Assembly: GCA_032718475.1 (NCBI GenBank)
Contig: JAUCBJ010007646.1
Location: 1-40,013 of the forward strand
Direction of reading: 5' to 3'
Length of the DNA: 40,013 nt
Source of the DNA: Nemertoderma westbladi
Lineage: Eukaryota; Animalia; Xenacoelomorpha
The position numbers and the translations under genes are program-made. Of this stretch, positions 2,731 to 34,399 are shown piece by piece. How positions within the stretch are numbered: position 1 is the stretch's first letter; each line of letters opens with the position of its first letter. The notes beneath the pieces were generated by a model, which was not told the origin of the DNA, ran no database searches, and saw only the letters and a list, made by a program, of their open reading frames with translations.

Positions 2731-3102
2731 ATGGGCCGATATTCCTGAATAGTTCGCTAAAAGACCATGGTCGTGGTAATGCATATAAGTTGGTGTTTTA
2801 AAACAGTGGGAATATTGCCTACCACAACTATGGGCTTCTCGCAGACAAAACTTCAATACAAAATCCATTAAATTATATCTAGACATGATACAATATATAG
2901 AAAAAGCTTGCCAACATTGTAAACAAAGCAACCGCCCGCCATAGCAGAAACTATCGAAACAGCACTCGGAGGTACAGGTGTCTCATAACTGAATTGATTT
3001 ACTGATCTGAATCCGCCTTGAAGGAAATTTAATTTACCATAAATAATGGTGAAATAAATTAACATCAATTGTAGCAGAATTATGAGCACAACCTTTAATA
3101 TT

Positions 3103-4175
3103 ACAAGCTTCCCAGCCGAGAGCTGGCAATAATGGACGGATCCATTGCTAACAATATTTTGTTGTAATAAATTACGCGCTTATGCAGGGCCAGCCTAATA
3201 ACGAAAAACGAAACATTGGGCAAAGTACCGGCTGTACAATTATGTAAAAAAAACACTCTTTTTAAGACGTGTACCTTCTCCTCCCACAATTCTAAACGAA
3301 ATAAAGTGAAATTTTGCACAAAGCATGTCCAATAGATACTCCCTATTTGGTGTCGACAGAAATTTGATTGAGTGAATTCTACGATTATGATCGGTCATTC
3401 TATGATTAATTTTACTGTTGCTAAGCAACCTAGAGGTGCCTCGCAACCAAAACCTTTCATACACAACTAGGTCCGATAATGAACCTATCATCAAAGTTTC
3501 ATCCAATTCCACCAACATTAAGTGCATTAAAAATGCAGCTGCAATGCAGCATGCCGATCCTAGTAGTAAGTGCACGAAGTTGTGTGTACAAACAAACAAA
3601 CAAACAAGCCTCCCAGCCGAGAGCTGGCAATAATGGACAGATCCATTGCAATCAATAATTTGTTGTAATAAATTATACGCCTATGTAGGGCAGCCTAATA
3701 ACGAAAAACATGCTTTCTGCCAAATTTCGCTTTATTTCGTTTAGAATTGTGGGAGAAGATACATTTCATACAAACGGTGTTTTATTTACATACAATTAAT
3801 TGCACAGACGGTACTTTGCCCAATGTTTCGTTTTTCGTTATTAGGCTGCCCTGCAAAGGCGCATAATTTATTACAACAAATTATTGATAGCAATGGATCC
3901 GTCTATTATTGCCAGCTCTCTGCTGTCAAACTTGTAGTAGTATGTATGTATATGTTTGTAGGAAATGTATCTTCTTCCACAATTCTATACGAAATAAAAG
4001 TGAAATTTTCCAGAAAGCATGTCCAATAGATGTCGACCGAATTTTGTTTGAATTAATTCTACGATTATGATCGGTCATTCTAGAATTAATTTCACTGTTT
4101 GCTAGGAAACCAACAGGTCGCTCGCAACCAAAAACCTTGCATACACAACTAGGTCCGATAATGAATCTATCATAA
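3103..4175. mobile_element. Cluster of rearranged non-autonomous repeats (Helitron/Helentron-like)
   Basis: Block cccagccgagagctggcaataatgga at ~3110 and ~3612, inverted at ~3900-3925. Block aaataaagtgaaatttt...acacaactaggtccgataatgaa at ~3300-3490 and ~3990-4170. CAAA/GTAT microsatellites; hairpin gctgca-a-tgcagc upstream of CTAGT at 3560. Confidence 0.5.
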
Positions 4176-4877: not shown

Positions 4878-6062
4878 CTGAAAATGCGAGTGGATTAGAT
4901 GAAATCCCAGTGGAGGTATGACAAAACCGGAGTGCTAAACAGACCATTATTGAATGTTTGCAACCGGATGTTAAAAGGGGAAAAGCCACCACCAATTTGG
5001 ACTAAAGGTAAACTAAAGCCTCTCCCTAAGAAAGGAGACCTTGGCATACCAACAAACTATCGTGGGATCTGTCTGCTTGTGGTAGCTGCCAAAATATACA
5101 ATAAAATGATTCTATATAGGATTAGGCCTCACATAGAGAAACTACTGCGTAAGAGCCAAATCGGATTTCGACCAAGTAGATCAACAATAGCTCAGATACT
5201 TGCACTACGGAGACTGATTGAAGGAATTAAGTCAAAGAATCTCCCCGCAGTCATGACTTTTGTGGACTTCAAGAAGGCATTCGACTCCATCCATAGAGGT
5301 AAAATGCTTGAAATCCTAAGAGCTTATGGAATACCAGAAATAATTGTTGCTGGCATTGGATTGTTATATTGTGACACAGAAGCGCAGGTATTCTCACCAG
5401 ATGGTGAAACTGAGTTTTTCTAAATCCTGGCTGGCGTACTGCAAGGTGACACATTAGCACCATTAGCATTTGTAATTGTGCTGGATTACGCAATGAGGAC
5501 GGCCACAAAGGGTGAAGATCTGGGATTCACACTTCAAGAAAGCATAAGTAGTAGATATCCGGCAACTACAGTCACAGGCACCGACTTTGCGGATGACATC
5601 GCTCTGCTCTCTAATACGCTACCAGATGCACAGCTTCTACTAAATAAAGTGGGGAGGGCTGCTAAGGAGGTTCGATTGCATATAAATGCTACTAAGACCG
5701 AATTCATGATTTTTAATGTTGATAGAAACTTGACAACCATTGATAATAATCAACTAAGGAAGGTCGACGACTTCCAGTACCTTGAATCATGGATAGAGAG
5801 TAGCAAAAAGGACATAGAAGATAGGAAAGCAAAGGCTTGGGTAGCTCTATCAAAAATGGATACCATCTGGAAATCAGATCTCTCCAGGCACCTGAAGACT
5901 AAGTTCTTGCGAGCCACAGTGGAAAGTGTATTTTTATACGGGGGTGAGACCTGGACACTAACTAAATCACTTGAACAACGAATTGATGGTTGCTACACAA
6001 GACTACTAAGGGCAGCCCTAAACATCAGCTGGAGACAACACATGACAAACGCCGAGCTTCTC
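4878..6062 (+). pseudogene. Truncated RTE-type non-LTR retrotransposon reverse transcriptase
   Basis: Motifs PKKGDL..NYRGI, FVDFKKAFDSI, GVLQGDTL, DFADD, ATVESVFLYGGETWTL. ORFs 4899-5423 and 5478-6095 share a frame, split by TAA at 5421; 5' and 3' ends are missing. Confidence 0.88.
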
Positions 6063-6986
6063 CATGATCGATCAGATCTCTCCATGACTGTATAGCTCCA
6101 CATATCCCCCAGGAACAATTTTCTCATTTTTATCTATTACTATGTAGTGTGATTTATTGGGATTAGGACTTATCAGAAGATGGTTATGGGCAAAGTATTT
6201 TTCAGCGTTTGTGATCATTTTTTCGATGTCTGTCTTCGTATTTCCAATAAAAATGATACCGTCTGCATAACTAATCGCGCCACAAGGTAAATGTTTTATG
6301 GTATTCCTAATCCACTGTTCTCTATCTCATGGAATAGATCAGCCATATATAGATTGAATAATATGGCCGATAGGACACCACCCTGACGTACGCCCTGCAA
6401 AAGATCAAATTTATTCTTGTAGAGCAGACCATCGATCTTAAGGGTTGCTTTCCCGGATTGATAATATGAGTGAATGATTTATGAGACGTTCATACAATTT
6501 ACTGAAAACTGGCCCCCTTGCCTCTTACTCGTTGCTTGTCAACGAGCATTTCATTTGAAACTGTGTAGAATGCCTCATAGTCAGCAAATTTATTATATTT
6601 CTCATAAAGAAGTACTCTGCTTTTCCTGCATCCAAACCGTAGTGTTCTTCGAGAATCAACAGAAGTGGAGATTCTTCAGCAACAATTATCGTAATGTAGT
6701 TTAAACTGTTTATGTAACCGTGACAGTTAAAGGACATTATCTTAACATCTGTGGCTGGAGTATTGTTGTTAAATATGTCATCTTTAATTGTAAGATGGTG
6801 ATTGTCTTGCAGTTTCATCCAATTCCATCAACATTAAGTGTAAGAAATTGTTTGTACAAACAAACACACACACCAACACACCCCCACACAGACATGTGGA
6901 GAAATAAGGACTTCCAACATGGATCCGTCCAATATGATCTCATAATATTATTTTTTTAATGATGATTTACAGGTGGTGGTGACATG

Positions 6987-9177
6987 GGAGTGCTGATGTT
7001 GATACCGGAGTGCTGATAGCAGCATATTAATACTGTAGTAGGCCACTTATAGCGGCATGTTGATACTGTAGTGCTGATAGCGGCATGTTGATACTAGAGT
7101 GATGATACTGCCGCAGCATGTTGATTCTGTAATGCTGGTAGCGGCATGTGGATACTGTAGTGCTGATGGCGGCATGTTGGATAATGTAGTGCTCATAGCA
7201 GCATGTTGATACTGTAGTGTAGATAGCAGCATGTTTATACTGTAGTGCTTAAATAGTGGCATGTTGACACTGTAGTGCTTATAGTGGCATGTTGGATACT
7301 GTAATGCTGATACTGCAGCTGCATGTTGGATACTGGAGTGCTGATAGCAGCATGTTGATACTGTAGTGCTGATGTGGCATGTTGATACTGTAGTGTGTGA
7401 TAGCATCATGTTGGATACTGTAGTGCTGATATCAGCATGTTGGATACTGTAGTGCTGATAGCACCATGTTGATACTGCAGTAGACCACTTATAGCGTCAT
7501 GTTGATACTGTAGTACTGATAGCGGCATGTTGGATACTGTAGTGCTGATAGCGGCATGTTGATACTGTAGTGCTGATAGTGGCATGTTGATACTGTAGTC
7601 GACCACTTATAGCGGCATGTTGATTCTGTAGTGCTGATAGCGAAATGTTGGATACTGTAGTGCTGATAGCGGCATGTTGGATACTGTAGTGCTGATAGCG
7701 GCATGTTGATACTGTAGTGCTGATAGTGGCATGTTGATACTGTAGTAGACCACTTATAGCGGCATGTTGATTCTGTAATGCTGATAGCGGCATGTTGGTT
7801 ACTGTAGTGCTGATAGCGGCATGTTGAAACTGTAGTGCTGATAGTGGCATGTTGATACTGTAGTAGGCCAATTATAGCGGCATGTTGATACTGTAGTACT
7901 GATAGCGGCATGTTGATTCTGTGCTGATAGCAGCATATGGATACTGTAGTGCTGATAGCGGCATGTTGGATAATGTAGTGCTGATAGCAGCATGTTGGGT
8001 AGTGCTGATAGCAGCATGTTGATACTGTAGTTGACCACTTATAGCTTCATGTTGATTCTGTAATGCTGATAGCGGCATGTTGGATACTGTAGTGCTGATA
8101 GCGGCATGTTGATACTGTAGTGCTGATAGTGGCATGTTGATACTGTAGTAGGCCAATTATAGCAGCATGTTGATACTGTAGTACTGATAGCGCCATGTTG
8201 ATTATGTAGTGCTGATAGCGGCATGTTGGATTCTGTAGTGCTGATAGCAGCATGTTGATACTGTAGTGCTGATAGTGGCATGTTGATACTGTAGTGTGCT
8301 GATAGCATCATGTTGGATACTGTAGTGCTGATATCAGCATGTTGGATACTGTAGTGCTGATAGCACCATGTTGATACTGCAGTAGACCACTTATAGCGTC
8401 ATGTTGATACTGTAGTACTGATAGCGGCATGTAGGATACTGTAGTGCTGATAGCGGCATGTTGATACTGTAGTGCTGATAGTGGCATGTTGATACTGTAG
8501 TAGACCACTTATAGCGGCATGTTGATTCTGTAGTGCTGATAGCGAAATGTTGGATACTGTAGTGCTGATAGCGGCATGTTGATACTGTAGTGCTGATAGT
8601 GGCATGTTGATAATGTAGTGCTGATAACAGCATGTTGATACTGTAGTTGACCACTTATAGCAGCATGTTGATTCTGTAATGCTGATAGCGGCATGTTGGT
8701 TACTCTAGTGCTGATAGCGGCATGTTGAAACTGTAGTGCTGATAGTGGCATGTTGATACTGTAGTAGGCCAATTATAGCGGCATGTTGATACTGTAGTAC
8801 TGATAGCGGCATGTTGATTATGTGCTGATAGCAGCATATGGATACTGTAGTGCTGATAGCGGCATGTTGGATAATGTAGTGCTGATAGCAGCATGTTGAT
8901 ACTGTAGTTGACCACTTATAGCAGCATGTTGATTCTGTAATGCTGATAGCGGCATGTTGGATACTGTAGTGCTGATAGCGGCATGTTGATACTGTAGTGC
9001 TGATAGTGGCATGTTGATACTGTAGTAGGCCAATTATAGCAGCATGTTGATACTGTAGTACTGATAGCGCCATGTTGATTCTGTAGTGCTGATAGCGGCA
9101 TGTTGGATTCTGTAGTGCTGATAGCAGCATGTTGGATACTGTAGTGCTGATAGCAGCATGTTGGATACTGTAGTGCT
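6987..9177. repeat. Satellite array, block 1 (28-bp GCTGATAGCGGCATGTTGATACTGTAGT; 29- and 33-bp variants)
   Basis: Tandem monomers; ~902-bp higher-order duplication (compare 7406-7606 with 8308-8508). Confidence 0.97.
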
Positions 9178-10547
9178 TGTTCGTGGTATTTCAACTTTTC
9201 CTAACGCGAGTTGAATATTTTTTTGGATTTATTTTAAATGAATATTCCGATATCACTACTGGGTGCGGGAACATGGGTTTTGGGCACATTCAATGGACTG
9301 GGGGCGATTTATGGGCGAATATTGGGGCGACTTACGGGGTACGGGAGTCATTTTATGTATTTAAGGGCCAGGGGTGGGAGGTAAAGTTAAGCAGTATTCA
9401 GGTTTGCCTGATTACTATTAGGCCTAGCCAACTTCCTGCTGCCTGTAGAGGTGGATTTGGTAACTCGCTAGGTCTAAAAGACAAGGGCTGCCCTTAGCGG
9501 TCCCTGGCCAACAGCAGTTATTACGAGACTGAAAAGGACATTGGAAAGTCTGCTGCTTGTGTCAGGGATTTGCGACGGGAACCGACGACAGACCCCTAGC
9601 CAAGCCGTACTGGTTCCTGATGACCGATCCCTTCGGGGTTCGGGAAGGGTGGGACGGACACGCGAATGGGTCGACCGACTAACGGAGGAAGGGTTAGACG
9701 AGGACTGCCTTCCTGGAGTGGGTTCCACGACTGGCGTTAGTACGAGCCTGAATAAGGACTCGGCAAACCACCAACCATTGGGGCTCACGACGGGCTGACA
9801 GACCCCTTGCCAAGCTGTACCGCTTTCCTGATGACAGATCCCTTCGGGGTTCGGGAAGGGTGGGACGGACATGCAATGGGGTCGAAAGACAAAGGACTGG
9901 ACTCTACTGGCCTACCGACTGTTCGGAGCAGCTTCTTGGCTGCCGAAGCGACTACGAGCCTGAATAAGGACTCGGAAAGCCTAGGTGGTTGGGTCCCTGC
10001 GATGAACCGACGGACCCCTAGCCAAGCCGTACCGCTTTCCTGATGACTGATCCCTTCGGGGTTCGGGAAAGGTGGGACGGACACGCGACAGGGTCTACCG
10101 ACTAGACCGACCCTTAGCCAAGCCGTATCGCTTTCCTGATGACCGATCCCTTCGGGGTTTGGGAAGGGTGGGACGGACACGCAACAGGGTCGACCGACAC
10201 CGACACTACGGTACCGAGACTAGGACCGGGGGAAAATTGGGGAACATTAGTTAGGCTAAAATCTGAGCGAACAGTGGGTAATTAAATAATGTACTGTAGG
10301 GATTTATATTGTCGTGTTATATTATTGTGAATATTTGGTGTATATTGGTTTGGGGAAGCCCAACTTATTCTCAATCAAGTTTCAACTGTAGGGAAGTTAC
10401 ATTAAAGAGTACATCCAACCAATGAAACTTTTCCTCAACCGCAATCTTGCATTTAAGAACGTATTCCTTCTCCACTACCAATGTCCGGTGACTGGCCGGG
10501 ATTCCGTGGTCTGAAAAGTTCCGAATGGTGCCGGAATAACGGCAACA
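9178..10547 (+). repeat. 5' LTR (1370 bp)
   Basis: Starts TGTTCG, ends GCAACA; collinear with 21673-23005; U3 is built from ~215-bp subrepeats. Confidence 0.95.
10341..10406 (+). promoter_or_regulatory. Putative LTR core promoter and R region: TATATT (10341), Inr-like TTATTC (10365-10370), poly(A) signal ATTAAA (10401)
   Basis: Spacing fits U3-R-U5 organisation, and all three motifs are conserved in the 3' LTR. The start site is inferred. Confidence 0.55.
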
Positions 10548-10549
10548 AA

Positions 10550-10561
10550 ATTGAGAATAAG
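10550..10561 (+). promoter_or_regulatory. Non-tRNA primer-binding site ATTGAGAATAAG, complementary to LTR 10364-10375
   Basis: Begins 2 nt after the LTR end; exact reverse complement of CTTATTCTCAAT; no TGG start. Confidence 0.7.
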
Positions 10562-10942
10562 ACGCGGCCAACTTCAACTGGTGGAAGTTGGGAATCCTAC
10601 AATACTCTTCAAACTGTCTCCGTGCTTACCAGCACCCACTACGAGGAAACTCTGGTATTTGATTTAAGACAAAGCCATGGTTTAATCAATCGACAAACTC
10701 GAACTAATAAACTCGTAGTCGGCAGATCACATATAGAGAGTCATTAACAGGGAATGGAAGTATCGATCATACCCATTGATATAATCCAAGTTGGGCCAGG
10801 AATCTGGCACGTCGAAGTTGAAGTACAAGGAACGAATGTCGGACCCATTCAGGATTACCGTTCGGGTAGTCCAAGCTGAATACGAGACCTACGAAGAACT
10901 ATTTTACGACATCGCATATCTAGCTATCAACGAGGCGCTAGA

Positions 10943-13540
10943 ATGACGACGAATAACGTCTCTGATACCGATGAGATGGACCCCCACACAGACTCGGAAG
11001 CTGACGAGGTGCCGAATGTGAAGAACATGGGTCGTCGACTGGGAGCTCTCAAAGGCGGAGTGACTCGAGCATACCAACGTATAGAGAAACAACTAAGGGG
11101 AGTCGAAACCCCCCTCAACGAGATACAGACTCAGCTACAGAATATCCGAAGTATCTTACAACGATATGAGAGGATGATACAGGCATACCAAGAACTCATA
11201 CCCGCCACCGATCAGGTAAACTACCCCAAACTCGAAGAACACGTCGCACATTTGGACGAGTTCCGGAAGCAACATCGGAGGACCCTCAGCCTTGTAAGAG
11301 GCTACGAGGAACAGTACTATAAGAGAACTGAAAGGACAGACGCAGAATCGGTGCGGACCTCCAGCACCAGGACAGCAATTCATCGAAAGAGAACGGGGTC
11401 CTCGAGGCACCAACACTCCAGCGCTAGGAGCGAGATGTCCGGTTCAGCGCGCAGTTCTCAAGGGGGTCAGCCACTCCGAGATCAGTTACGAGAACAGAGG
11501 GCATTGGCCCTTAAAGCTCGAATGGAAGACGAATATGTTCAACTGCAGATCGAACAGGATGTATTGGCAGCCGAAATGCAAAAACGAGAGGCCAAACAAC
11601 AGGCCAAACAACGTAAACGAGAGGCCGAACAACAGGCTGAACAACATAAACGAGAGGCCGAACAACAGGCCGAACAACGTAAATGAGAGGCCGAACAACA
11701 GGCCGAACAACGTAAACGAGAGGCCGAACAACAGGCCGAACAACGTGAATGAGAGGCCGAACAACAGGCCGAACAACGTGAACGAGAGGCCGAACAAGAG
11801 GCCGAACAACGTAAACTAGATGCAGAAATGTGTAAACAACATGCCGAGGCCCAAGCGATTCTCATCCATAAAAAGAATGCGGATATTGCGAAACTCGCGG
11901 AATATGAAGCCGCACTCATAGAACGAGATCTTCAATTATACGAGGACTGGGAAAGGGGTATAGAACATAGCTATGAACCAATAACGGTCCCGGAACTAGA
12001 GAAGTCATTTACGCCACCGGCGGCGAAACCTCTGAAACCCGAGTTCCCGCCAACCATACAGTCTACGTTATCGGCACAAGCTCCGGTATTCCATCCCCCA
12101 CCGGTTACGCTTAAGAATGAGGAACCTTATTTCCCATCCAACCCCATGGTACCGAGCGTTCCCAAGTACGAGCCTGAAAAGGACTCAGAACGGGACGCCA
12201 CCCCTCGATCCAACAACCCGTTTACATCTACACCACAAATCCGTAACCGCGTCATCATTAAAACTCCACCTCTCATCGATCCATCGTGCATGGGAGAGAG
12301 TGCTAATAACTATAACCCTCCTAGTCATTCCAGTTCAGATGACGTCGGCATTATCTGGGCATTGGAAAACCGCCTGGCCATGCCCAAGATGGAGATCCGC
12401 ACCGTCGAAGGAGACCCCGTTGGATTACCTCGGATTCAAGAAACGGTTCTTCACTCAGATTGGGTCAACGGATATAACCGACGCACAAAAACTGGTATAT
12501 TTATCCCAATACCTGGGTGACAAACCACGTCGAATCATTAAATGTTTCGACGGAGGATCTCATGAAGCATACTATGACGCATGGAAAACTCTAGACAAAA
12601 GATACGGAAATATCGGGACTATAATTAATAAAACTCTCGAGAAACTGATACAGGACGCGGGATCCCTAGGGGACCCACAGAATATCCAGGAATTCTCGGA
12701 TTCCATGAAAGATGCCTACTACACTCTAAAACCATTAAATAAGGAGGAACAAGTAAACAACATTCTAAACCTCCGACAGATTGCCCAAAAGTTCCCCGGA
12801 TGTCTACAAAGCAAGTGGGCGTATAAATGCGTAGATCTCCGACGCAGACGCCCAGATTGAGATCCCAGTTTCCTCAAAATGTCGGCATTCCTAGATGATA
12901 TCTCCAAAGCCATGAATGACTCGATGTTCTCCAAACAAAGTCTCTCCAAGTTAGACGGAATAGAGAACAACTCCAGGAGCAGGACAACCACTCCGAAACC
13001 GAGATTCTGTCCCCCTCCGGTGAGTACGATGGCCATCACCATGGCCGAGGATTGTGACGACGAGGACTACGAGGAACCGACATCAGCCGAGGAATGGGTG
13101 TGATATCTAGCGAATTGGGCACCTGAAAGGGAAGGCACCACAACCTCCCTTCTATGTCTTTTCTGCGGAGAGAAACATAAGGTGGAATTCTGCAGAAAGT
13201 TCCAGTTTGCTGAACTCGTCCCACGATTCGAGGCGATAATGAAACACCGAGGATGCTTCCGGTGTCTCGGAACAGGTCACTATGTTCGGGATTGCGACCA
13301 AAGATCATGCTGCGCGGTCTGTAATGACCTACGTCATCACACACTCCTCCACATCCCCGCGAACTTTGACTTTACCACCCTCCCCTTTCGGATCGAAGCC
13401 AAACGAAGAGGAGAAATGAACCACGTCTCTAAAGGAACCCGGATGATTCAACGGAGGGAAACCAATCCGTTTAAAACCTCCACCGATGTATCACAAGTGA
13501 CAAATATCTCGGCTACGATCAACCTTATAAATCGCCGTTC
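10943..13540 (+). pseudogene. gag: BEL/Pao gag, disrupted
   Basis: Coiled-coil N-terminus; DUF1759-like region (GDP...F...KLVYLSQYL...AWKTLDKRYG); three Cys/His knuckles CLFCGEKHKVEFC, CFRCLGTGHYVRDC, CAVCNDLRHHTLLH. Stops at 11684, ~11750, 12858, 13101; frameshift near 12415. Confidence 0.9.
11582..11812 (+). repeat. 7 x 33-bp coding tandem repeat (KREAEQQAEQR) in gag
   Basis: Unit aaacgagaggccgaacaacaggccgaacaacgt. Confidence 0.93.
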
Positions 13541-16500
13541 ATGGTCTTTGCCAAAGTAATCCCAGTAAGAATTCAAGGGGTCGGGAAATCCTTGACAACG
13601 CTCGCATTCCTTGACAACGGGTCGGACGGAACCATCATCGACCGAGATTTCCTCGAACAACTTGGCCTAGACTATGAACCTTGCAAACTGCCCATACAAA
13701 CTATCACCGACCATAGAGAAGTAGAGTCCGGGGAGGTGCAGCTCCAGATGGAAGGAGTCATGAAGGGTTACGAGACGGTCAAGCTGACGATCATGAACGC
13801 CTTGGTACACACCGATCTCCGAGTGCGGTTCCGACAATCGGCTGAATACGCACCCCTCATACAGCTAGACCGGGAAGATGTAGACCTACGATGTCCACCG
13901 TTGGACGTGAACCGAATCACCCTATTGATCGGACTAGACACACCGGAATTACACATACCCACCAGAGACGTCGCCCGATCTGTAAAGCCGGATGACGGCT
14001 TTTATGCCGAACGCACGATCATGGGATGGACACTCTGCGGCATCAAGGAGGAGATTACAGACACCTATACATATCTCCCTAAATGTCAGATTAAAGAGAA
14101 TGCAACATCCATGGGTTATTGTTCAGCAACAGACTTGGACGAGGATTTATTCCTAGAGACGGAAAAAACCCAGCAGGAAATGACCAAATACTTTAATCTA
14201 GAGACCCAAGAGTTTGCTGAAAAGGACAAGAACCCGTCCGAGGAAGATCAATATTGTATTACGTCCTTGATCAGGCCACGTTCAAAGATGGACATTGGTG
14301 TTTGCCCATGTTGTGGAAAGACCCAGATAAACCGATGGCAAATAATGTCAACATGGCCCTTAGGCGGCTCAAAGGAATCCTACGCCGGTTGAATGAACAA
14401 CCCGAGATAAAGGAGAAATACAACAATGTAATCAAAGGATATCTAGAAGATGGATTGGCGGAAATGGTACCCCGGAATGAACTGCAAGGGGGTAGACGGA
14501 CATATTATCTCCCAACCCACTATGTGGTAGAAGCCCGGAAGGGCGGGAAAATCCGAGTAGTGAATGATGCTGCTGCTATGTACCAAGGCGAATCCCTGAA
14601 CAGCCAACTTTATACAGGGCCCAACATATACAGTACACTTATCGGCGTGTTGATCAGGTTCAGGGAAAACCGGATAGCATTCACATGCGACATCAAAGCG
14701 ATGTTTCACCAGGTCCGAACGCTACCAAGAGACTCAGACTGTCTGCGTATATTATGGACGGATAAAACATTAACTCCACAGGAGATAAGTCAACTCACAT
14801 TGAAGGATGTGGACGTAATGCGCATGATTGTCAGGATCTTCGGCGCTAAGGACTCGCCGGTAGCATGTAGTGACATGCTGAAGAAAACAGCGACTATGTG
14901 CGAAAACGAGTTCCCTCCGACAGTCATAGAAACCATCCGACGATGCTTCTACGTGGACGACGGATGCGCCGGTGCCGATAATGTTGACGAGGCATATCAG
15001 CTGGCGATGGGGATGGTGGAATGCTTAAAGAAAGGAGGTTTCCCTCTCGTAAAGTTCAGATCCCACGACAAGAAACTTATAGAAAAGCTTCCGGAGGAAA
15101 TCAGACTGGACAACAATAAAATGTATTCCGAGGATGTGGATCACCGTGTACTCGGCATTGAATGGGACATAGAATTGGATGAATTCATCTTCAAATATAA
15201 CCCCCTACCCAAGCCCATGACAAAAAGGGGATGTCTGTCCATAAAGAGTGCTATATTCAATCCACTAAACTTCATATCCTCAGTAACATTAGCCGGAATG
15301 AACTTGATCAAGGAAATGTGGATAGAAGGACTGGGATGGGACGAAGAACTCCCCCCACACCTCAGTGTCAAATGGAGAAAGTATGACGGAACAATTCGAA
15401 TATCTATATCTTATGCGGATCCCTCGACCGTTCTTCCTCGATAAACTACCCACCGATATATTCCAGCTCCATACTTTCTCGGATGCTTCAAATACCGGAA
15501 TCGGCGTAGTCACTTTCCTAAGAAGACTAAGTCAGGATGAAAACAGCGATACGAGCTTCTTATTTTCCAAGGCTAAGACAGTATCCGGGGAATTCGTAGC
15601 AACGATACCGAGACTCGAGCTACAGGCCGCAGTTTAGGCAGTGAGACAGAACCGCATGGTCATGCGGAACCTACGAATCCCCATCGAATCGCAACATTTC
15701 TGGGTCGATTAGAGTATCGTTCTCTACTACCTCCACTCACCATCACGGCGACACACCACGTTCGTAGCGAACCGAGCCACAGAGATAAAACAGTGCACCG
15801 GCCGAGAACAGCGGCACCATGTAAACGGGAAAGAAAATCCAGCGGACCTATCGAGCAGAGGCGCCACCCCAAAACAACTCGGTAAAAGTAAACTCTGGCT
15901 CACAGGCCCGGAATTTCTACAGCAGCCACAATTAACCTGGAGTACCCGATTCGATCCCGAACTCGATAGTGGAAAATACTCCGAAGACGACAAGGAGATC
16001 CGTAAAGTCCATAGAAGCACCACAGTGGAGATCTATAGTTGTCTGACCGAGCTTGCAAAGGACTCGGGCAGGCACTATAACATCGCGACTATCACGCAAC
16101 CAGCGGCGTCTTTACAACTATTGATAGAGCGAACCTCCTCAATGAAATGTCTCATCCACCATGTATTAACCCTTCGCAACTTCCTGCGGTGGAAGAACAA
16201 CAAACCGATAGTTCGAAGAAGTATACAAGAACTCATTATCGCGGAGAAGTGTATTGTTAGATATGTCCAGAGAGAAAATTTCCCCGATGAGTGGGAACAA
16301 CTCAGTGCGGGCAAGACCTTGAAACCGGACAGTCCAGTCTACCAATTGAGACCAATGATGGGAGAGGACGGACTGATTCGACTGAATACCCGGATGGCAA
16401 ACGCCCCAGTTGAATATGAAGTCAAATACCCAGCGCTTCTGCCCGGAACGTCAACACTAGCCAAGCTATTAATCCAACAGTGTCACGAGGAAAGCCATCA

Positions 16501-17656
16501 CGCGGGACAGAGCTGGATTATGGCTAATATATGGCAAAGATATTGGATCACCCACATCCAGCCACTGATCCGGAAAGTGTTAAAACGTTGTTTTCCCTGC
16601 AGAAGATATCTAGTGCCACCACTCACACAAAGGATGGCCGACTTACCAGCCACACATCTACAGTCCGATTCCCCACCGTTCTACGTAACCGGAGTAGACT
16701 GTTTCGGACCATTCACGGTCATCGAGTGACGATTCAACATCAAATGCTGGGGAGCCATCTTTACATGCCTTAGGTCTAGGGCAATCTACCTAGACATTGT
16801 GGTGAACCTTACGCAACACGCATTTATCAACGCCCTGCATCGGTTCGTGGCGAACAATGGAACATGTCGTCATATGTACTCCGATAATGGTACAATCTTC
16901 GTGGGAGGAGAAAGAGAACTTAGAGAGGCGATCGAAGGATGGTTCACCGAGGACACCGCATCCCAAGTCTGGAGGGAACACCATATACAGTGGCACTTCC
17001 AAACACCCTTAGCACCCCATACGAGCGGAGTGTGGGAGAAGCTCATCAACTTGGTAAAACGATCCATGCGCGTCGCATTAGGAGACACCCGGGTAACCCA
17101 CGACACCCTCCGCACAACATTCTGCGAGATCACGGCTACCCTAAACAACCGGCCCATCGTACCTATCCACGACGACCCCACAGATCTGGAGCCTCTCACT
17201 CCTAACCATCTACTCGGAAGACCCAAACCCCGCATTCTTCCAGAGACGATGTTTCCGGATCCCAACGATATCGCGAGACATACCAATTGGAAGAAGGCCC
17301 AAGCGTTGGCAGCGCATTGGTGGAGAATCTGGGCGCAAGAGTACCTCATAACCCTCCGGACTAGTAGGAAGTGGAACAACACCTATAGGAACATCGCAGT
17401 TGGCGACATGGTGCTAGTGAAGGAAGACCTTAAAGACCGCGTCCACTGGCCTGTGGCGCGAGTCGTGGCAATAAACCCAAGTAAAGACGGACTTGCGAGA
17501 ACTGTGACGATACGAACGGCAAAGGGCCACTACCAACGCCCTATCCAGAGGCTGTGCCTTCTTGAAGGCAATGACAGTGGTGACTCTACGAGAGGTGATA
17601 AGTTCCCTACTCAGGATCCTGCTGCAGACATTGGTGACAATGCTAAACCCATTTAA
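13541..17656 (+). pseudogene. pol: BEL/Pao pol (aspartic protease, RT, RNase H, integrase), disrupted
   Basis: AFLDNGSDGT; KIRVVNDAA, DIKAMFHQV, FYVDD; FSDAS, TIPRLELQAA; integrase H..HH...CxxC, DCFGP, SDNGT, WEKL; C-terminal WWRIWAQEYL...RPIQRLCLL. Several frameshifts and stops. Confidence 0.95.
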
Positions 17657-17920
17657 ACCCTTCTCATCCTGTTGACAAACTCTTTAAACTGTGATTTATC
17701 GACAATGAATAATGGACCCCCTTAAACCAACTGTAACCACGCAATGGTATTTGTGTTTCCTCGTGTGTTATGTGGAGTCCAGCGTCACCCTGCAGATGTT
17801 TCGACTGACGCAGGGTCGTTTAGGTATTGTTAAGCCTGATTTTGGTCATTGGGACCAACGACATTGGATTATGGTAAAGATTTGAAGTGGAATTCATTGT
17901 ATCCATTGTATTATGTTGTG

Positions 17921-18345
17921 TTGTCCGTTGCGTGCGCAGTTCGGGGCGTAGGTGGTGTAACTAGTCCAGCTGTAGATCCCGGATTGCCGCGCAACACCCC
18001 CTCTATCCCGTTATTCTGGTGGGTCCATGGTACATCCACATGACTTCGTCGATAGAGGTTTTATGTTTCTCAGTCGCGTTATTCTGGTGGGACCGTTGCG
18101 TGGATTTTGGGGCGTAGGCGGTGTAACTAGTCCAGATGTAGATCCCAGAATGTTGCGTAACCCCATCCCACATGACTTCTTCGGCTGAGCTTTATGTTGT
18201 TGGGAGTGTTATTCTGGTGGGTCCCTGGTGCATTCCACTTGACTTCACTTCCAGCGTCTTCATTGTCCGTTACGTGTGTAGTTTGGGGCGTAGGCGGTGT
18301 AACTAGCCCAGCTGTAGATCCCAGATTGCCTCGTAACACCCCTTC
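17921..18345. repeat. Three diverged ~170-bp direct repeats between pol and the extra ORF
   Basis: Core ggggcgtaggYggtgtaactagYccagMtgtagatccc at 17943, 18109, 18285; ttattctggtggg recurs three times. Confidence 0.85.
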
Positions 18346-18892
18346 CACAACGAAAATTTCCCAAAGAAGATGGTTGAATGTAGTTGGAAATGATGAAAAG
18401 AAACAGACAACCCTTCTATAAACTGAATGATGACGCGTATGATGATGAAAATGTAATGATGCGCACCCTGGTGCTGCGCTTATAACAAATGATGATAGCC
18501 GGGGGGTTATAACCCCAATGATGATATGGCAATAAATGAAATGTGTAATAAATGTGGAAATAAATGATGAAATGTGGAAAGAAATAATGAAATGTACAAT
18601 GAGCAATAAATGAGAAATGAAAAAAGACAAAAAAAATGTATAAAATGTAGAAAGGAAAAGAATTGGAAAAAGAAGAGGACATAAAAAGTCAAAACTGGTT
18701 GGATATTAATGTATAGCTATAGTAACTGTAAATGCTGAATATATTAGCAATAAGATGGTAGATGCCTATATAGCAATGTTATTTAATAAACTGAATTACA
18801 AATAATCTGAATTATTCTGCAGTCACTATAGTATCAGACTTTCTGGATTTATAATTAACTGATGTAAATTTGCAACGGACATAATCGAAAAT

Positions 18893-21493
18893 ATGGACCC
18901 AAATCGACAAATTATCAGCGAACTACGTAATATGATAGATTTACTGGAATATCCACAACCTGGTTCCCCTAACTTTGATACAAAATGGAACGCCCTGATA
19001 AATGAGCATGTGCGAGTCGTTAAAATCTCCGGGCGAGAGGGACCGGATTCCCGGAATCTACGAGACCTCCGGTTGTCCGATGCTAGTACGAGACTGAAAA
19101 GAACTCGGAACGCAAAGGCAACCGGAGGAGATGAGCTGTCGTTCTGGGAAACGTTCCGGCAAAGCGTTTACAAATCCCGATGTTTGATATACGACAACGA
19201 GGGAAACGCGACGCCCACCTCGAAAGTGATTACATTGGCGCAATGCCAAAGTTTCGTCGACGACAAGAGTATGTACCTCACCCACTGGGGAAACCTAGCG
19301 GAGTGTACGGCAACGCTGTGAGAGGAACGTATATCAGTTATCCAGAATCGCTACGACTACCAGGAGAAGTACGGGACGAAGGAGTACGGTCGATCCTTGG
19401 TCGTTGTCCTCGGAACCCTAGACGGTTTGGTGTTGGTATGTCGAATATTTCCGACACCCAAACAGGAGGTGCGGACAGCCGGAGCAATCTGGCTACTACC
19501 ACCTGATATCCAAAAGATCCTATTTGACTTCGACATTATTAAAATCGGGTCGGATATAAAGGCAGACATCCGAAACGACTATGCGAACGCTCCTTTCGGA
19601 AGAAACTGTCGAGAAGATCTTAACGCCATTAGTCATTGCGTCGACACCCAAACACTTCTAGCCTGGTTGCGATCCGCCGACTTCATGCGAGGATTCCGAG
19701 AAGTGAGACGGACGAAATCCGGTATCGGCTACCTCGCAGTGCTAAACGGCGGTATAGACTTTAAACCCCAGAAATTCCAGGACTATAATAAGATATATGG
19801 TGGATACCCGGGATTAGAAATAAAGAGTGAGCGAGAGAGTCGCTGGAAGGACGTTGAAAGAAAGTGGACGATCCACCACAAGTGGGAGAATCCGGAGCGA
19901 CGGAACTACATCTACGTCATTATGGAATCCTACACAGTCGCTAAGTTCATATGTAAAACTCTCGATAGCCTCATTACGGCGGTTCCTAGTTCCTTTATCG
20001 ACTATGAGTGGAACGAAGTTATCAACCACGCGTTCAAAGCAGTAGAGAATATTTCACCGGGAGAGACGAAAACGCTCACAGCCATCGCATCCTGGGACGA
20101 GAATGGGCCGTTCAACATCCCTACGATTACCGATCTCTTCGGTGCGGAGGAACCTCTGATTTCTTCGGATGGGGAAGAATTATGGCTACAGGAAGGTGTT
20201 CTACTGTCCACCCCAAAGCGACAACTCGATCCGGAAGCCGCGTCCGAACCGGCCGCCAAACCGGTCGCCTCGGCCGAACCTGCGACGGAAGCAGGTGTTT
20301 CAACCCCACTTGGCTCCGGTAGCCCCGCGAGGGAGTTAGTCACTACCTTCGCGTCACTACTACTTCGGCGACATATGTCAGAGGTTATCTCCATATCCGT
20401 TCCCGGGTGGTGAAGACTGGTCTTCGGAGATTCCGAGTACCAGCACCCAACGGACCCGCTCAGCAATACTGGTTGAAAAGGGTCCTAGCGCTGCGCCGAC
20501 TCCCGAAGATCTCCTCGGAATCCCTCCGTCGAAAACCCCGGCACCTCTTCGCCAACCAGCGGTGGCAACTACCCCCTCCGTTCCACAGGATCCGATGCGA
20601 CTTACCCGATGGTACACCGAGCAGACCGAATGGATCCACCGCCAGAAACGGTCACACGAGATGAGTCCGGCAGGATATAAGGAAGGTTATCGAAACGAGA
20701 ACATACTACGCCAGAGCACAGCTTTTCGCGGGCTACCGGCCACAGCGAATATTCCTAAAAGCGACCGACGACTCGAGTATCACGCCGGCGTCCCGACTCC
20801 AATATTCTTCGGCCGGGAGATGCAACTGGAGGTGTGCGAAGACTGCGGTTCGGAGCAGTGCCCACGCGGTAGAAAAAATCGGGTTACCGAGTCGTGCCTC
20901 CAGCTCCTCGGGATACTTTATTGTCCCTATTGCGAGACATCGGGCCACGATGTTTCAGTTTGTCCGATCCTTTATAACCTCTGCACAACTTGCGGTTTCC
21001 GGGGACATTCCGCTAGCCCCCGCTGTAATATAAAATGTCCTACGAAAGATGTTACCGCTATGGGCAATATGGTTATGTTCGAAACCTACGCAAACAACCA
21101 CGTAAAGACCAAAGTACGGAGAAACGCTCGAAATATCGCGCAAGAGATGGCTGCGGGTATTTTTCGTTCCCGGAACGCCTCCATACGACAGCGGCGCTAC
21201 CATTCCATTACATGGATCTGTTGCTAAGCGCTGGATTATTCGGCCCATTCGAGATCCTTCGGCGTTTATATTCATATAAGGAAGAGTTCGGCGATGGAAA
21301 GTGGTTCCTAGAGGCACGCACCACCGAGTTAGAAAGACGAACAGATATGATCCCGCTACCATCGAAAGGAAGAGCTGCCAGGAGACAAGCCGAAACGTTG
21401 CTCACGATGGATGTTGACGCTCCCCTACCAGCACTAGCGATCGACGAGAGTCGACGGGCGAAGAGGAGAAAGGCGTATCAGAGTAAGAAATAG
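18893..21493 (+). pseudogene. Accessory ORF (~870 codons): DEDDy 3'-5' exonuclease (WRN/RNase D-like), Pro-rich linker, CCHC zinc knuckles
   Basis: ExoI LIYDNEG (19193); LPPDIQKILFDFDIIKIGSDIKAD with ExoII D at 19565; VDTQTL; W..YVIME as ExoIII (19913); CPYCETSGHDVSVC and CTTCGFRGHSASPRC. Reconstructed across a TGA at 19319 and inferred frameshifts near 20340-20410 and ~21160. Confidence 0.72.
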
Positions 21494-21663
21494 AGGACCA
21501 GGATATTCCAGGAACATTTATATCGAACATTTATTTTTTATATTTACATAAACAAACTCTAGGCCAAATTAATCAAGACTATGCAATATTAATATTTTGG
21601 GTTTTTTATATGGGAAATGACCTACGCAAACTCGATCTACCGATAGACCTCACAAAGGTCATT

Positions 21664-21671
21664 GGGGGGGA
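21664..21671 (+). promoter_or_regulatory. Polypurine tract
   Basis: GGGGGGGA one base upstream of the 3' LTR TGT. Confidence 0.8.
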
Positions 21672-21672
21672 C

Positions 21673-23005
21673 TGTTCGCGGTATTTCAACTTTTCCTAAC
21701 GCGAGTTGAATATTTTTTGGATTTATTTTAAATGAATATTCCGATATCACTACTGGGTGCGGGAACATGGGTTTTGGGCACATTCAATGGACTGGGGGCG
21801 CTTTATGGGCGAATATAAGTAATCAGTATCAGTATCATCTAATAGTAATCAGGCAAACCTGAATACTGCTTAACTTTACCTCCTACCCCTGGCCCTTAAA
21901 TACATGAAATGAGTCCCATACCCCGTAAGTCGCCCCGACTTACGGGGTACGGGACTCATTTCATGTATTTAAGGGCCAGGGGTAGGAGGTAAAGTTAAGC
22001 AGTATTCAGGTTTGCCTGATTACTATTAGGCCTAGCCAACTTCCTGCTGCCTGTAGAGCTGGATTTGGTAACTCGCTAGGTCTAAAGGACAAGGACTGCC
22101 CTTAGCGGTCCCTGGCCAACAGCAGTTATTACGAGCCTGAAAAGGACATCGGAAAGTCTGCTGCTTGTGTCAGGGATTTGCGACGGGAACCGACAACAGA
22201 CCCCTAGCCAAGCCGTACTGGTTCCTGATTACCGATCCCTTCGGGGTTCGAGAAGGGTGGGATGGACACGCGAACGGGTCGACCGACTAACGGAGGAAGG
22301 GTTCGACGAGGACTGCCTTCCTGGAGTGGACTGGACTCTACTGGCCTACCGACTGTTTGGAGCAGCTTCTCGGCTGCCGAAGCGACTACGAGCCTGAATA
22401 AGGACTCGGAAAGCCTAGGTGGTTGGGTCCCTGCGATGAACCGACGGACCCCTAGCCAAGCCGTACCGCTTTCCTGATGACCGATCCCTTCGGGGTTCGG
22501 GAAGGGTGGGACGGACACGCGACAGGGTCTACCGACTGGACCGACCCTTAGCCAAGCCGTACTGCTTTCCTGATGACCGATCCCTTCGGGGTTCGGGAAG
22601 GGTGGGACGGACACACAACAGGGTCGACCGACACCGACACTACGGTACCGAGACTAGGACCGGGGGAAAATTGGGGAACATTAGTTAGGCTAAAATCTGA
22701 GCGAACAGTGGGTAATTAAATAATGTACTGTAGGGATTTATATTGTCGTGTTATATTATTGTGAATATTTGGTGTATATTGGTTTGGGGAAGCCCAACTT
22801 ATTCTCAATCAAGGTTCAACTGTAGGGAAGTTACATTAAAGAGTACATCCAACCAATGAAACTTTTCCTCAACCGCAATCTTGCATTTAAGAACGTATTC
22901 CATCTCCACTACCAATATCCGGTGACTGGCCGGGATTCCATAGTCTGAAAAGTTCCGCCTCCAGCATCGGCGTTTTCCCCCATGGTGTCGGGAATAACTG
23001 CAACA
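21673..23005 (+). repeat. 3' LTR (1333 bp)
   Basis: Collinear with the 5' LTR except a net +114 fold-back insertion, a 174-bp deletion (equivalent to 9721-9894) and ~+23 bp near the end. Confidence 0.95.
21839..22029. repeat. Inverted repeat, 94-bp arms, 3-nt loop, one mismatch
   Basis: ctaatagtaatcagg...gtaagtcg-ccc-cgacttac...cctgattactattag. Confidence 0.93.
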
Positions 23006-24842
23006 GTGCTGATAGCAGCATGTTGATACTGAAGTAGACCACTTATAGCAGCATGTTGATACTGTAGTACTGAGAGCGGCATGTTGATACTGTAGTGCTG
23101 ATAGTGGCATGTAGATACTGTTATTAGGCCACATATAGCGGCATATTTGATTCTGTAGTGCTGATAGCAGCATGTTGGATACTGTTGTACTAATAGTGGC
23201 ATGTTGATACTGTAGTAGACCACTTATAGTGGCATGTTGATACTGTAGTGCTGATAGCAGCATGTTGATACTGTAGTGCTGATGCGGCATGTTGATACTG
23301 TAGTGCTGATAGTGGGATGTTTATACTGTAGTGCTGATAGCAGCATGTTGATACTGTATTAGGCCACTTATAGTGGCATGTTGATACTGAGGTGCTGATA
23401 GCGGCATGTTTATACTGTAGTGCTGATAGCGGCATGTTGATACTGTAGTGCTGATAGCGGCATATTTATACTGTAGTGCTGATATCAGCATGTTGTTACT
23501 GTAGTGCTGATAGCAGCATGTTTATACTGTAGTGCTGATAGCAGCATGTTGATACTGTATTAGGCCACTTATAGCGGCATGTTGATACTGTAGTGCTGAT
23601 AGTGTCATGTTGATACTGTAGTAGGCCAATTATAGCGGCATGTTGATACTGTAGTACTGATAGCAGCATATTGATTCTGTAGTGCTGATAGTGCATGTTG
23701 GATACTGTAGTGCTGATAGCAGCATGTTGGATACTGTAGTGCTGATAGCAGGATGTTGGATACTGTAGTGCTGATAGCAGCGTGTTGATACTGTTGTAGA
23801 CCACTTATAGCAGCATGTTGATACTGTAGTACTGATAGCGGCATGTTGATACTGTAGTGCTGTTAGCAGCATGTTGATACTGTAATGCTGATAGTGGCAT
23901 GTTGATACTGTAGTGCTGATAGCGGCATTTTTATAATGTAGTGCTGATAGCAGCATGTTGATACTGTAGTGCTGATAGCGGCATGTTTATACTGTAGTGC
24001 TGATAGCAACATGTTGATACTGTAGTGCTGATAGCAGCATGTCTATACTGTTGTGCTTATAGCAGCATGTTTATACTGTATTAAGCCACTTATAGCGGCA
24101 TATTGACACTGTAGTGCTGATAGCGGGATGTTGATACTGTAGTGCTGATAGCGCATGTTGGATACTGTAGTGCTGATAGCAGCATGTTGAATACTGTAGT
24201 GCTGATAGCAGGATGTTGGATACTGTAGTGCTGATAGCAGCATGTTGATATTGTTGTAGACCATTTATAGCAGCATGTTGATACTGTAGTACTGATAGCG
24301 GCATGTTGATACTGTAGTACTGTTAGCAGCATGTTGATACTGTAGTGCTGATAGTGGCATGTTGATACTGTAGTGCTGATAGCGGCATTTTTATACTGAA
24401 GTGCTGATAGCAACATGTTGATACTGTAGTGCTGATAACGGCATGTTTATACTGTAGTGCTGATAGCAACATGTTGATACTGTAGTGCTGATAGCAGCAT
24501 GTCTATACTGTTGTGCTTATAGCAGCATGTTGATACTGTATTAAGCCACTTATAGCGGCATATTGATACTATAGTTCTGATAGCAGCATGTTGATACTTT
24601 AGTGCTGATAGCAGCATGTGGAAACAGTAGTGCTGATAGCGGCATGTAGATACTGTAGTGCTGATAGCGGCATGTTGATACTGTTGTAGACCACTTATAG
24701 CAGCATGTTGATATACTGTAGTACTGATAGCGGCATGTTGATACTGTAGTGCTGTTAGCAGCATGTTGATACTGTAATGCTGATAGTGGCATGTTGATAC
24801 TGTAGTGCTGATAGCGGCATTTTTATAATGTAGTGCTGATAG
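23006..24842. repeat. Satellite array, block 2
   Basis: Same monomers as block 1; ~460-bp higher-order repeat. Confidence 0.97.
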
Positions 24843-28693: not shown

Positions 28694-28852
28694 GGATGGA
28701 GCTGGGTTAGTGATAGGATTGTATGTATTGGCAGTTGTGGTTGATGATATAGGGGTAGTAGGGAAATTATGACGTGCCAGTTGGGAAAATATATGGGGGT
28801 GGGGGTGGGGTATGGGATGTGTAGGTGTACCATTAGCAGTAGATATTAATTG

Positions 28853-29869
28853 TCAGTCAACCCTATCAACATTGTTGGATAGTGTTGCGGATGGACGATT
28901 CTGTAGTCTACGTCGCTGCCTTTCCTTGTAGGCACGTTCACGATCGAACCTCGAAAGGTCCTTGTCAAAATAATATCGCACAGTAGCTGAATCAGATTCC
29001 ACTGTGAATGATTTCTTTTCCAGGACTCTGTAGGCAGTTTCTGATGATTGAAATATTAGTCGTAGAGGACGTGGCTTTCCATCATCTCTTTTCTTCCCCA
29101 GGCGGGATATCTCATGGTGAGGAAGGGAAGTATGTAAGGTTGATTGTAAGAACTGGTTATCGGAAAGACGTTGGGTTTCAGGAGTAGCTTGAGTATCACC
29201 TGGTACACCACGAATTATAACATTCTTTTTGCATTGCTCATTTACAGATATGATTTTCTCTATGCTCTCCAAGGATTGCGTATTAGTAGTAGTGGCCGCT
29301 GCACCCTCAAGTTTCTTTGTTAGATTGCCGATTTGGTCAGCATTTTTCTTGACAATATCAGCCCAAGAGTTATTTTCACTGCAACCGGAACCAAGCCCGC
29401 CTCCAACAGTTTCAATATTATTTAATTTGTCCTTAACTTCGCAGGTTGTGGCCGCGATTTCATCAATCCGAGACTCTAATTCAATCCGCAAGGAAGACAC
29501 ATCTGAGGATATATCTTTGCTTTCGGCAGATGCACTATCTGCTGCATTCTGAATTTCCGTGTAGAGCACATCAGACTTACTGGAGTGGGATTCTTGGAGC
29601 ATCTGAAGTGCTTGCTGGAGTTTGTTGATGAGTTCAGCAGAGCAGAAACCACACGAGAAAGGCTCATTTATAATATCTGATTTCTTTCGAATCTCAACCT
29701 CGGTCCATGTGTGAAGACAGATTGTGCATTCAACTTTCACTGTCTCCCATTCTACAGGTCTTGGTTTTAATCTTGGACTTTTGGATTTTATCCCCTGTTT
29801 TGTTGAGGGAGCCATACCACAAGAATCTCGTTGACTAAAGCTAGATCGACGTTGGTTCTGACTGGACAT
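28853..29869 (-). CDS. LINE ORF1: PHD-like Cys cluster, coiled coil, RRM-like C-terminus, 338 aa
   Basis: CTICLHTW...FSCGFC; heptad region; NVIIRGVP and RLGKKRDDGKPRPLRLIF motifs typical of CR1/L2 ORF1; lies upstream of ORF2. Confidence 0.88.
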   Translation of the reverse strand: MSSQNQRRSSFSQRDSCGMAPSTKQGIKSKSPRLKPRPVEWETVKVECTICLHTWTEVEIRKKSDIINEPFSCGFCSAELINKLQQALQMLQESHSSKSDVLYTEIQNAADSASAESKDISSDVSSLRIELESRIDEIAATTCEVKDKLNNIETVGGGLGSGCSENNSWADIVKKNADQIGNLTKKLEGAAATTTNTQSLESIEKIISVNEQCKKNVIIRGVPGDTQATPETQRLSDNQFLQSTLHTSLPHHEISRLGKKRDDGKPRPLRLIFQSSETAYRVLEKKSFTVESDSATVRYYFDKDLSRFDRERAYKERQRRRLQNRPSATLSNNVDRVD

Positions 29870-30053
29870 TATTGGACATTATTCCCTATTATGAATAGCA
29901 GATGATGTTGTTTCAACAATTATAATACAATTGACGAAATGCAGTTGTATATAGCAATATCACAATTCACAATGATGTATGTATTGTATAGTATATAGGC
30001 TGCTACTCTGCCTGCACTCTGCAAAATCTGCACTACCAGCAGACCAGTACCTA

Positions 30054-33000: not shown

Positions 33001-34399
33001 AGTGCTGATATCAGCATGTGGATACTGTAGTGCTGATAGCAGCATGTTGATACTGTAGTGCTTATTGCAGAATGTTGATACTCTAGTGCTGATAGTGCAT
33101 GTTGATACTGTAGTGCTGATAGTGCATGTTGATACTGGAGTGCTGATAACAGAATGTTGATACTGGAGTTGTGATAGTAGCATGTTGATACTGTATTAGG
33201 CCACTTATAGCAGCATGTTAATACTGTAGTGCTGATAGCGGCATGTTGATACTGTAGTGCTGATAGGTGGCATGTTTATACTGTAGTGCTGATAGCAGCA
33301 TGTTGATACTGTATTAGGCCACTTATAGTGGCATGTTGATACTGTAGTGCTGATAGCGGCATGTTGATACTGTAGTGCTGATAGTGGCATGTTTATACTG
33401 TAGTGCTGATAGCAGCATGTTGATACTGTATTAGGACACTTATTATAGCAGCATGTTGGATACTGTAGTGCTGATAGTGCATGTTGATACTGTAGTGCTG
33501 ATAGCAGCATGTGGATACTGTAGTGCTGATAGCAGCATGTTGATACTGTAGTGCTTATTGCATAATGTTGATACTGTAGTGCTGATAGCAGCATGTTGAT
33601 ACTGTATTAGGCCAAATATTATAGCGGCATGTTGGATACTGTAGTGCTGATAGTGCATGTTGATACTGTAGTGCTGATAGCAGCATGTTGATACTGTAGT
33701 GCTTATTGCAGAATGTTGATACTGTAGTGCTGATATTGCATGTTGATACTGTATTGCTTATTGCAGAATGTTGATACTGTAGTGCTGATAGCAGCATGTG
33801 GATACTGTAGTGCTGATGCTGCATGTTGATACTGGAGTTCTGATAGCGGCATGTTGATACTGTATTAGGCCACTTATATCGGCATGTTGATACTGTATTA
33901 GGCCACTTATAGCAGCATGTTGATACTAGAGTGCTGATAGTGCATGTTGATACTGTATTAGGCCACTTATAGCAGCATGTTGATATTGGAGTGCTGATAG
34001 CGGCATGTTGATACTGTATTAGGCCACTTATAGCAGCATGTTTATACTGTATTAGGCCACTTTATAGCGGCATGTTGATACTGTATTAGGCCACTTATAG
34101 CGGCATGTTGATACTGGAGTGCTGATAGCGGCGTTGATACTGTATTAGGCCACTTATAGCAGCATGTTGATACTGTAGTGCTTATTGCAGAATGTTGATA
34201 TTGTAGTGCTGATTGTGGCATGTTGTGTTGATACTGTAGTGCTGATAGTGCATGTTGATACAGGAGTTCTGATAGCAGCATGTGGATACTGTATTAGGCC
34301 ACTTTATAGCAGCATGTTGATACTGTATTAGGCCACTTATAGCGGCATGTTGATGCTGTATTAGGACACTTATAGTGACATGTTTATTCTGTATTAGGC
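30054..34399. repeat. Satellite array, block 3
   Basis: Same monomers; ~1.3-1.4 kb higher-order duplication. Confidence 0.97.

Follow-up and report, generated by a model that had tools for sequence, protein, structure and literature searches.

A predicted self-primer in a BEL/Pao retrotransposon of Nemertoderma westbladi and its putative intron-split counterparts in related elements

In the Tf1/sushi elements, among them Tf1 and Tf2 of Schizosaccharomyces pombe, Tj1 and Tosmo1-3, the primer-binding site (PBS) is not one for a tRNA, and its complement is a stretch of about 11 nt within the R region of the element itself. The initial 11 bases of Tf1's RNA are paired with the PBS, and RNase H cleaves between bases 11 and 12 (PMC7175516), and Tf1/sushi elements form a three-duplex pretzel around the PBS (bioRxiv 10.1101/2022.12.06.519325). 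Self-priming has been described for Tf1/sushi and Tcn1 and predicted for the Ty1/copia TAR lineage (Houba, Osr-1), the criterion being a stretch of at least 10 nt that starts 0–5 nt after the 5′ LTR and is complementary to the LTR (PMC6317226). Fungal Copia elements of the GalEa type, which have a conserved hairpin site, likewise lack a tRNA PBS; their site pairs with downstream sequence, and no complement in the LTR was found (PMC5445492). Within BEL/Pao, Achilles of the olive fly has a TG...CA LTR and an ATTAAA poly(A) word and is primed by tRNA-Tyr (PMC4580426). A term look-up in the available text of three BEL/Pao surveys (PMC554778, PMC3118150, PMC6238403) found no discussion of priming, and no BEL/Pao self-priming was found in the available text of PMC3601003, PMC5445492, PMC5443660, PMC13524379, PMC3286476, PMC8220671 or PMC9094657. 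More generally, the mostly open-access literature covered here yielded no description of BEL/Pao self-priming or of a primer built by splicing in the text available.

Here we analysed a stretch of 40,013 nt of Nemertoderma westbladi (the window; contig JAUCBJ010007646.1), which contains a BEL/Pao element with a PBS complementary to its own LTR (Table 1). In this it resembles Tf1/sushi and differs from GalEa; in its superfamily, LTR ends and poly(A) word it resembles Achilles, whose tRNA-Tyr priming contrasts with the non-TGG site of the window element. The site has the length, position and LTR complementarity by which self-priming was predicted for the TAR lineage and Tcn1, but these are plant and fungal elements of other superfamilies, and an intron-split primer is not mentioned for them in the available text of PMC6317226. 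Tf1/sushi elements are Ty3/gypsy chromoviruses, whereas the window element has BEL/Pao domains and no chromodomain among its Pfam hits, and is therefore not a member; by analogy, it may nonetheless work like Tf1. Two further differences are that the window primer need not be the first bases of the RNA, and that the primer of its relatives is split by an intron, which the available text on Tf1/sushi does not describe (PMC7175516, bioRxiv 10.1101/2022.12.06.519325).

The window element and its primer-binding site

A first-pass annotation, made from the letters of the window, had placed the LTR end at 10547 and, after a 2-nt spacer, a PBS without TGG; the alignment of the two LTRs and the GTGCT target site duplication (TSD) confirm both. 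The LTRs agree in 1160 of 1195 aligned columns (97.1%), and the 28-bp satellite of the host halts at 9177 and picks up again at 23005, so that the element ends are fixed independently of the LTR alignment. Pfam matches along 12036-17653 occur in the order DUF1759, CCHC knuckle, protease, Peptidase_A17, Integrase_H2C2 and DUF5641, which identifies a BEL/Pao element (Belpaoviridae), and the TG...CA LTR pair, short TSD and polypurine tract are present as well. Identity to BEL polyproteins is 35–41%, the closest named proteins (at most 41%) coming from marine invertebrates and fish. The copy in the window is broken, with at least three frame changes and several stops in gag-pol; in three DNA runs, which come from two studies, its family shows up as repetitive. 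The 5′ LTR is without 23 nt of U5 after 10523 (10523/10524), which are present in the 3′ LTR (22958-22980) and in many family contigs.

Table 1. Coordinates of the element and its predicted priming features in the window
Feature	Position	Strand	Remarks
BEL/Pao LTR retrotransposon, 13.8 kb	9178-23005	+	LTR pair, TSD, domain order
Left TSD, 5 bp, GTGCT	9173-9177	+	Within 28-bp satellite
5′ LTR, 1370 bp, TG...CA	9178-10547	+	Long U3 with internal 96-bp repeats
TATA-like word TATATT	10341-10346	+	Role as promoter box doubtful
Predicted self-primer, contiguous	10364-10375	+	11-nt core 10365-10375; ends AT
ATTAAA poly(A)-like signal	10401-10406	+	25 nt past primer end
U5 segment complementary to 10565-10570	10493-10498	+	Possible pretzel arm
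PBS without TGG	10550-10561	+	2 nt past LTR; complementary to 10364-10375
Predicted 8-bp hairpin	10568-10591	+	Directly 3′ of PBS
gag-pol, BEL/Pao order	10880-17656	+	DUF1759, CCHC knuckle, protease, RT with YVDD, Pao RNase H, integrase, DUF5641
Extra coding region between pol and 3′ LTR, about 860 codons	18863-21493	+	In pieces; preceded by acceptor-like site near 18823
Polypurine tract	21664-21672	+	
3′ LTR, 1333 bp, TG...CA	21673-23005	+	Second primer copy 22798-22809
Right TSD, GTGCT	23006-23010	+	

The element was inserted into the satellite, which forms higher-order repeats and occupies 6996-9177, 23005-24842 and 30054-35656. Between two of the satellite blocks lies a LINE (25766-29878, minus strand) with an open endonuclease-RT frame of 1028 aa and an upstream frame of 341 aa. 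The window also holds inverted repeats resembling MITEs, a palindrome of 148 bp, a 23-bp minisatellite and the broken RT of a further retroelement (3096-3998, 34399-35036, 979-1126, 1947-2730 and 4899-6095). Within the element, the 3′ LTR alone carries a near-perfect inverted duplication (21839-22029; 94-nt arms, 3-nt spacer), the interior of gag a 33-bp (11-codon) tandem repeat (11504-11860), and the spacer downstream of pol an 83-bp unit in three copies (17921-18345). The extra coding region had no match in Pfam, PDB, a homologue search or the 80 BEL loci described below, and its single-sequence fold (pLDDT 34) was unusable. By eye, its piece 19322-20413 carries what may be a 3′-5′ exonuclease motif, and the next piece has Cys/His knuckle-like motifs. 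Extra ORFs have been reported in bdelloid LTR elements (PMC5408684).

The PBS is the exact reverse complement of the 12-mer upstream in the 5′ LTR, as already noted in the first-pass annotation, with no extension on either side, and the 12-mer stands unchanged in the 3′ LTR. When the LTR was shuffled with its dinucleotides kept, a 12-nt complement at any start 0–5 nt past the LTR appeared in 7 of 20,000 cases; among 11,000 internal positions none matched the LTR over 12 nt and two did over 11 nt. The match is real and far beyond chance. Predicted pair probabilities of the duplex are 0.8–1.0 for RNAs starting at 10335 to 10364, slightly weaker for starts at 10365 and 10368, and the duplex is absent when the RNA starts at 10371. 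Among the listed family contigs, which come from two studies, there is no substitution in the PBS, one contig having a one-base insertion behind 10560; the core shows one rare variant (10370, one contig), and further variants fall at 10348, 10364, 10378 and 10380. Because 10364 varies, the stable core is 11 nt long. No compensatory change was seen within the element's own family. As for the pretzel, the 6-bp arm in U5 (Table 1) reached p values of 0.04–0.11 with a pair probability of 0.16, the other arm p 0.02 in the 5′ LTR and 0.78 in the 3′ LTR, and across 22 families the arms were not enriched on average (p 0.62 and 0.12).

An ordinary TGG PBS in intact copies had been named beforehand as evidence that would speak against self-priming; none follows 10547 and none occurs among the listed family contigs. 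No tRNA gene was found in the window and no Rfam match at 9178-11000; read as an anticodon loop, the core is not known to fit any cytosolic tRNA. Nor does the window element have a spliced form of the primer, the best GT-AG-spliced match being only 5 nt, and the listed family contigs show no intron-like loose end.

Where the transcript begins is less well captured by the first-pass annotation. Its TATATT word, put about 25 nt before the 12-mer, is present, with a spacing of 23 nt from start to start, and its ATTAAA downstream of the 12-mer stands; two further TATA-like words lie 46 and 59 nt upstream. The start it proposed at 10364-10367 from the TATA and Inr-like words is not supported. The canonical distance from TATA box to start is about 30 nt, which from 10341 leads to about 10371, where the duplex no longer forms, and in the relatives a second helix with a bulge, 5′ of the core (see below), suggests that the RNA begins further upstream. 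A fixed TATA distance was rejected as a start marker, as the relatives show none.

Self-matches and predicted LTR introns in related elements

A metagenome scan for relatives gave 80 BEL loci. In 11 non-redundant families two LTR copies overlap at the 3′ end and diverge after CA, so that the LTR end was set blind to the PBS. None of these 11 has TGG at the PBS, and their sites differ from one another. Contiguous matches to the own LTR were mostly short (6–10 nt) and began immediately behind AG and its preceding pyrimidine tract. The remainder of the site matched the bases just before an upstream GT; all GT-AG junctions were therefore tested. Ten families thereby reached 11–15 nt, and L070 has a contiguous match of 11 nt. 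With the window element included, all 12 have a self-complement of 11–15 nt (10 spliced, 2 contiguous), compared with 2 of 130 in a cross-family null. Four loci with overlapping repeats not ending in CA were added: L004 (11 nt) and L034 (14 nt, with a PBS that begins with TGG), where the LTR end was set by eye after the match was seen, and L010 and L048, which gave no match and have an unclear LTR end. The full tally is 14 of 16 with 11–15 nt (12 spliced, 2 contiguous) against 7 of 240 in the cross-family null. Only GT and AG were required of a junction, and the donor reads GTAAG in 10 of the 12 introns compared with 19 of the 556 GT sites in those LTRs. Intron lengths are 76–186 nt in this 16-element set and up to 536 nt elsewhere.

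That relatives keep an 11–15 nt match between PBS and own LTR while the sequences differ is covariation and supports the earlier proposal of tRNA-independent self-priming. The first-pass annotation had overlooked the main feature of the group: the predicted primer of most relatives is complete only across an LTR intron. Exact loss of such introns is seen in two cases. One 5′ LTR copy of L024 is without its 117-nt intron to the base, and a comparison of the 3′ copy of L070 with L075 shows 536 nt gone to the base, as would be expected from reverse transcription of spliced RNA; the contigs concerned are probably mosaics of insertions. The LTR intron of L075 (137-672) has two acceptors, both followed by the same five primer bases, of which the distal one was used in the intronless copy of L070.

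Another 14 families were found de novo or by eye; they were picked because they match and thus show diversity, not a hit rate. An initial de novo scan, limited to ACA ends, did not pick up L016, L034 and L004. A second scan, over the 27 loci with sufficient 3′ LTR, found a spliced match of at least 11 nt in 15, compared with 33 of 702 cross pairs, 19 of these 33 being same-family or close pairs. About 35 loci without usable upstream DNA or a readable LTR end enter no count, and near-identical loci were dropped from the family counts (L050; L056; L059, L061, L062; L060, L065; L064; L072). Altogether, 28 families (24 spliced, 4 contiguous) have 27 distinct primer cores of 10–15 nt, located 0–4 nt from the LTR end and ending in AC (26) or AT (2: the window element and L052); L078, with 10 nt and a weak donor, is a doubtful case. 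A poly(A)-like word stands at or past the primer end in 20 of 26 families. The window primer has this same format, with 12 nt, AT, a distance of 2 nt and a poly(A) word 25 nt downstream.

This diversity of cores bears on a different reading of the duplex, in which it is a regulatory or packaging structure, for example one that masks the 5′ poly(A) site or reports splicing, and a host RNA such as a tRNA half is the primer. Priming by half-tRNAs exists in Copia lineages (PMC6317226). For the present elements, however, 27 different cores in 28 families would require 27 host primers, each core matches its own LTR only, and the duplex always ends 0–4 nt from the LTR end, where the primer end must sit. 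We regard host-RNA priming as very unlikely.

In the relatives a second helix of 1–5 bp beyond a bulge, 5′ of the core, is enriched (mean 2.07 vs 1.29; a post hoc comparison), with 0 of 20,000 permutations reaching this value, or 151 with G-U pairs allowed; it is absent in the window element. It suggests that the relatives' RNA starts upstream of the core. Viral contigs gave 59 pattern matches, none of which was confirmed as a relative.

In one well-supported subclade (L027, L028, L035, L039, L057, L063, L070, L078, L080) the PBS directly adjoins the LTR end (spacer 0), the spacer of the other relatives being 2–4 nt, which predicts a different processing of the ends by integrase in this subclade. 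In a sister group, L006 (1-60, with little LTR sequence) has a non-TGG site of similar look, with a 2-nt spacer followed by GT.

Phylogenetic placement of the window element

In RT, the window element is 34–40% identical to the self-primed rows of the alignment, which share 41–73% among themselves. A tree of 33 of the 61 rows and 947 columns (LG+C20) placed it within a 19-row group (SH-aLRT 98) to which all 13 self-primed rows belong and from which the mosquito rows and a fish-crinoid pair are absent. The element forms a long branch: its sisterhood to the 13 self-primed rows had a support of 59, and FastTree placed it elsewhere. Given this distance and the long branch, the covariation in the relatives supports self-priming of the window element only indirectly. 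L022 and L025, both contiguous, sit within the intron-bearing rows of the tree, a pattern expected from intron loss, and it is plausible that the window family, too, is contiguous by descent with intron loss; its self-primer may also be of independent origin.

The long branch could also be taken to mean that the window 12-mer is unrelated to self-priming in the relatives and arose by chance, or was left as a scar when a small stretch was duplicated in inverted orientation. Such events do occur, as the inverted duplication at 21839-22029 shows, and an initial reading of a sequence favours the picking of matches of this kind. Yet few shuffles reproduce the 12-mer, its complement lies exactly at the position of a PBS, its length (11–12 nt), AT end and downstream poly(A) word agree with the relatives, it is kept across the listed family contigs, and no other primer site is evident. 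A chance match or scar is thus highly improbable.

A proposed model of self-priming and its meaning

From the pairing between R and PBS, we predict that the window family primes reverse transcription with its own RNA, independently of tRNA, and hold this to be quite probable. By analogy with Tf1, transcription would start at or somewhat upstream of 10364; the R segment would fold back onto the PBS, and cleavage behind 10375, for which the element's RNase H is the probable enzyme, would create the 3′ end of the primer. Minus strong-stop DNA would then run, again as in Tf1, through the 2-nt spacer, U5 and R to 10376 and jump to the 3′ copy of R upstream of the poly(A) site. The homology for this first strand transfer would be R from 10376 to the poly(A) site downstream of 10406. 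In the intron-bearing relatives, splicing of the 5′ copy would complete the primer, and an unspliced 3′ copy would pass the intron on to both new LTRs; were the 3′ copy spliced too, the intron would be lost exactly and permanently. With the primer bases removed from the 5′ end, the 3′ LTR would be the template for all sequence upstream of the cut, and for this reason the relatives could depend on splicing of the 5′ copy without losing the intron. The window family has the contiguous form, perhaps through such an intron loss.

The primer might be the same R sequence but be supplied in trans, by short transcripts of R alone that end at the poly(A) site of the 5′ LTR, or by the 3′ copy of R in the genomic RNA, rather than by fold-back of the 5′ end in cis. 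It occurs in both LTRs, ATTAAA follows it after 25 nt, the pretzel arms that would favour cis are not established, and the poly(A) signal of L034 overlaps the primer. We consider this unlikely, because the cis duplex dominates the predicted ensemble and because a primer from the 3′ copy would need the 3′ intron to be spliced, so that the intron should vanish from the progeny; yet it is held in 12 of the 14 matching families. Furthermore, the primer end usually lies well upstream of the poly(A) signal, and a trans primer would still have to be cut.

Beyond fold-back priming in cis by the window family, the relatives point to a wider proposal, to which we give about even chances: a large lineage of BEL/Pao elements in marine animals would self-prime, with the spliceosome building the primer from the 5′ LTR copy only, so that splicing gates replication and the unspliced 3′ copy keeps the intron heritable. 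The window family would be a deep branch that escaped this gate by intron loss. The splice-built form in the relatives is the most surprising part, and the window family its divergent contiguous counterpart; with its intron-bearing and intronless members, this natural pair opens the mechanism to direct testing.

Such elements will be wrongly classed as defective by annotation tools that insist on a tRNA PBS. If the prediction is true, self-priming extends to a third superfamily of LTR retrotransposons, a point relevant to the question, raised in PMC3601003, of which mode is older, priming by tRNA or by the element itself. If splicing completes the primer, reverse transcription would be coupled to host RNA processing in a novel manner, and the persistence of an intron within an LTR would have an explanation. 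Elements primed in this way would be independent of tRNA and presumably beyond control by tRNA fragments.
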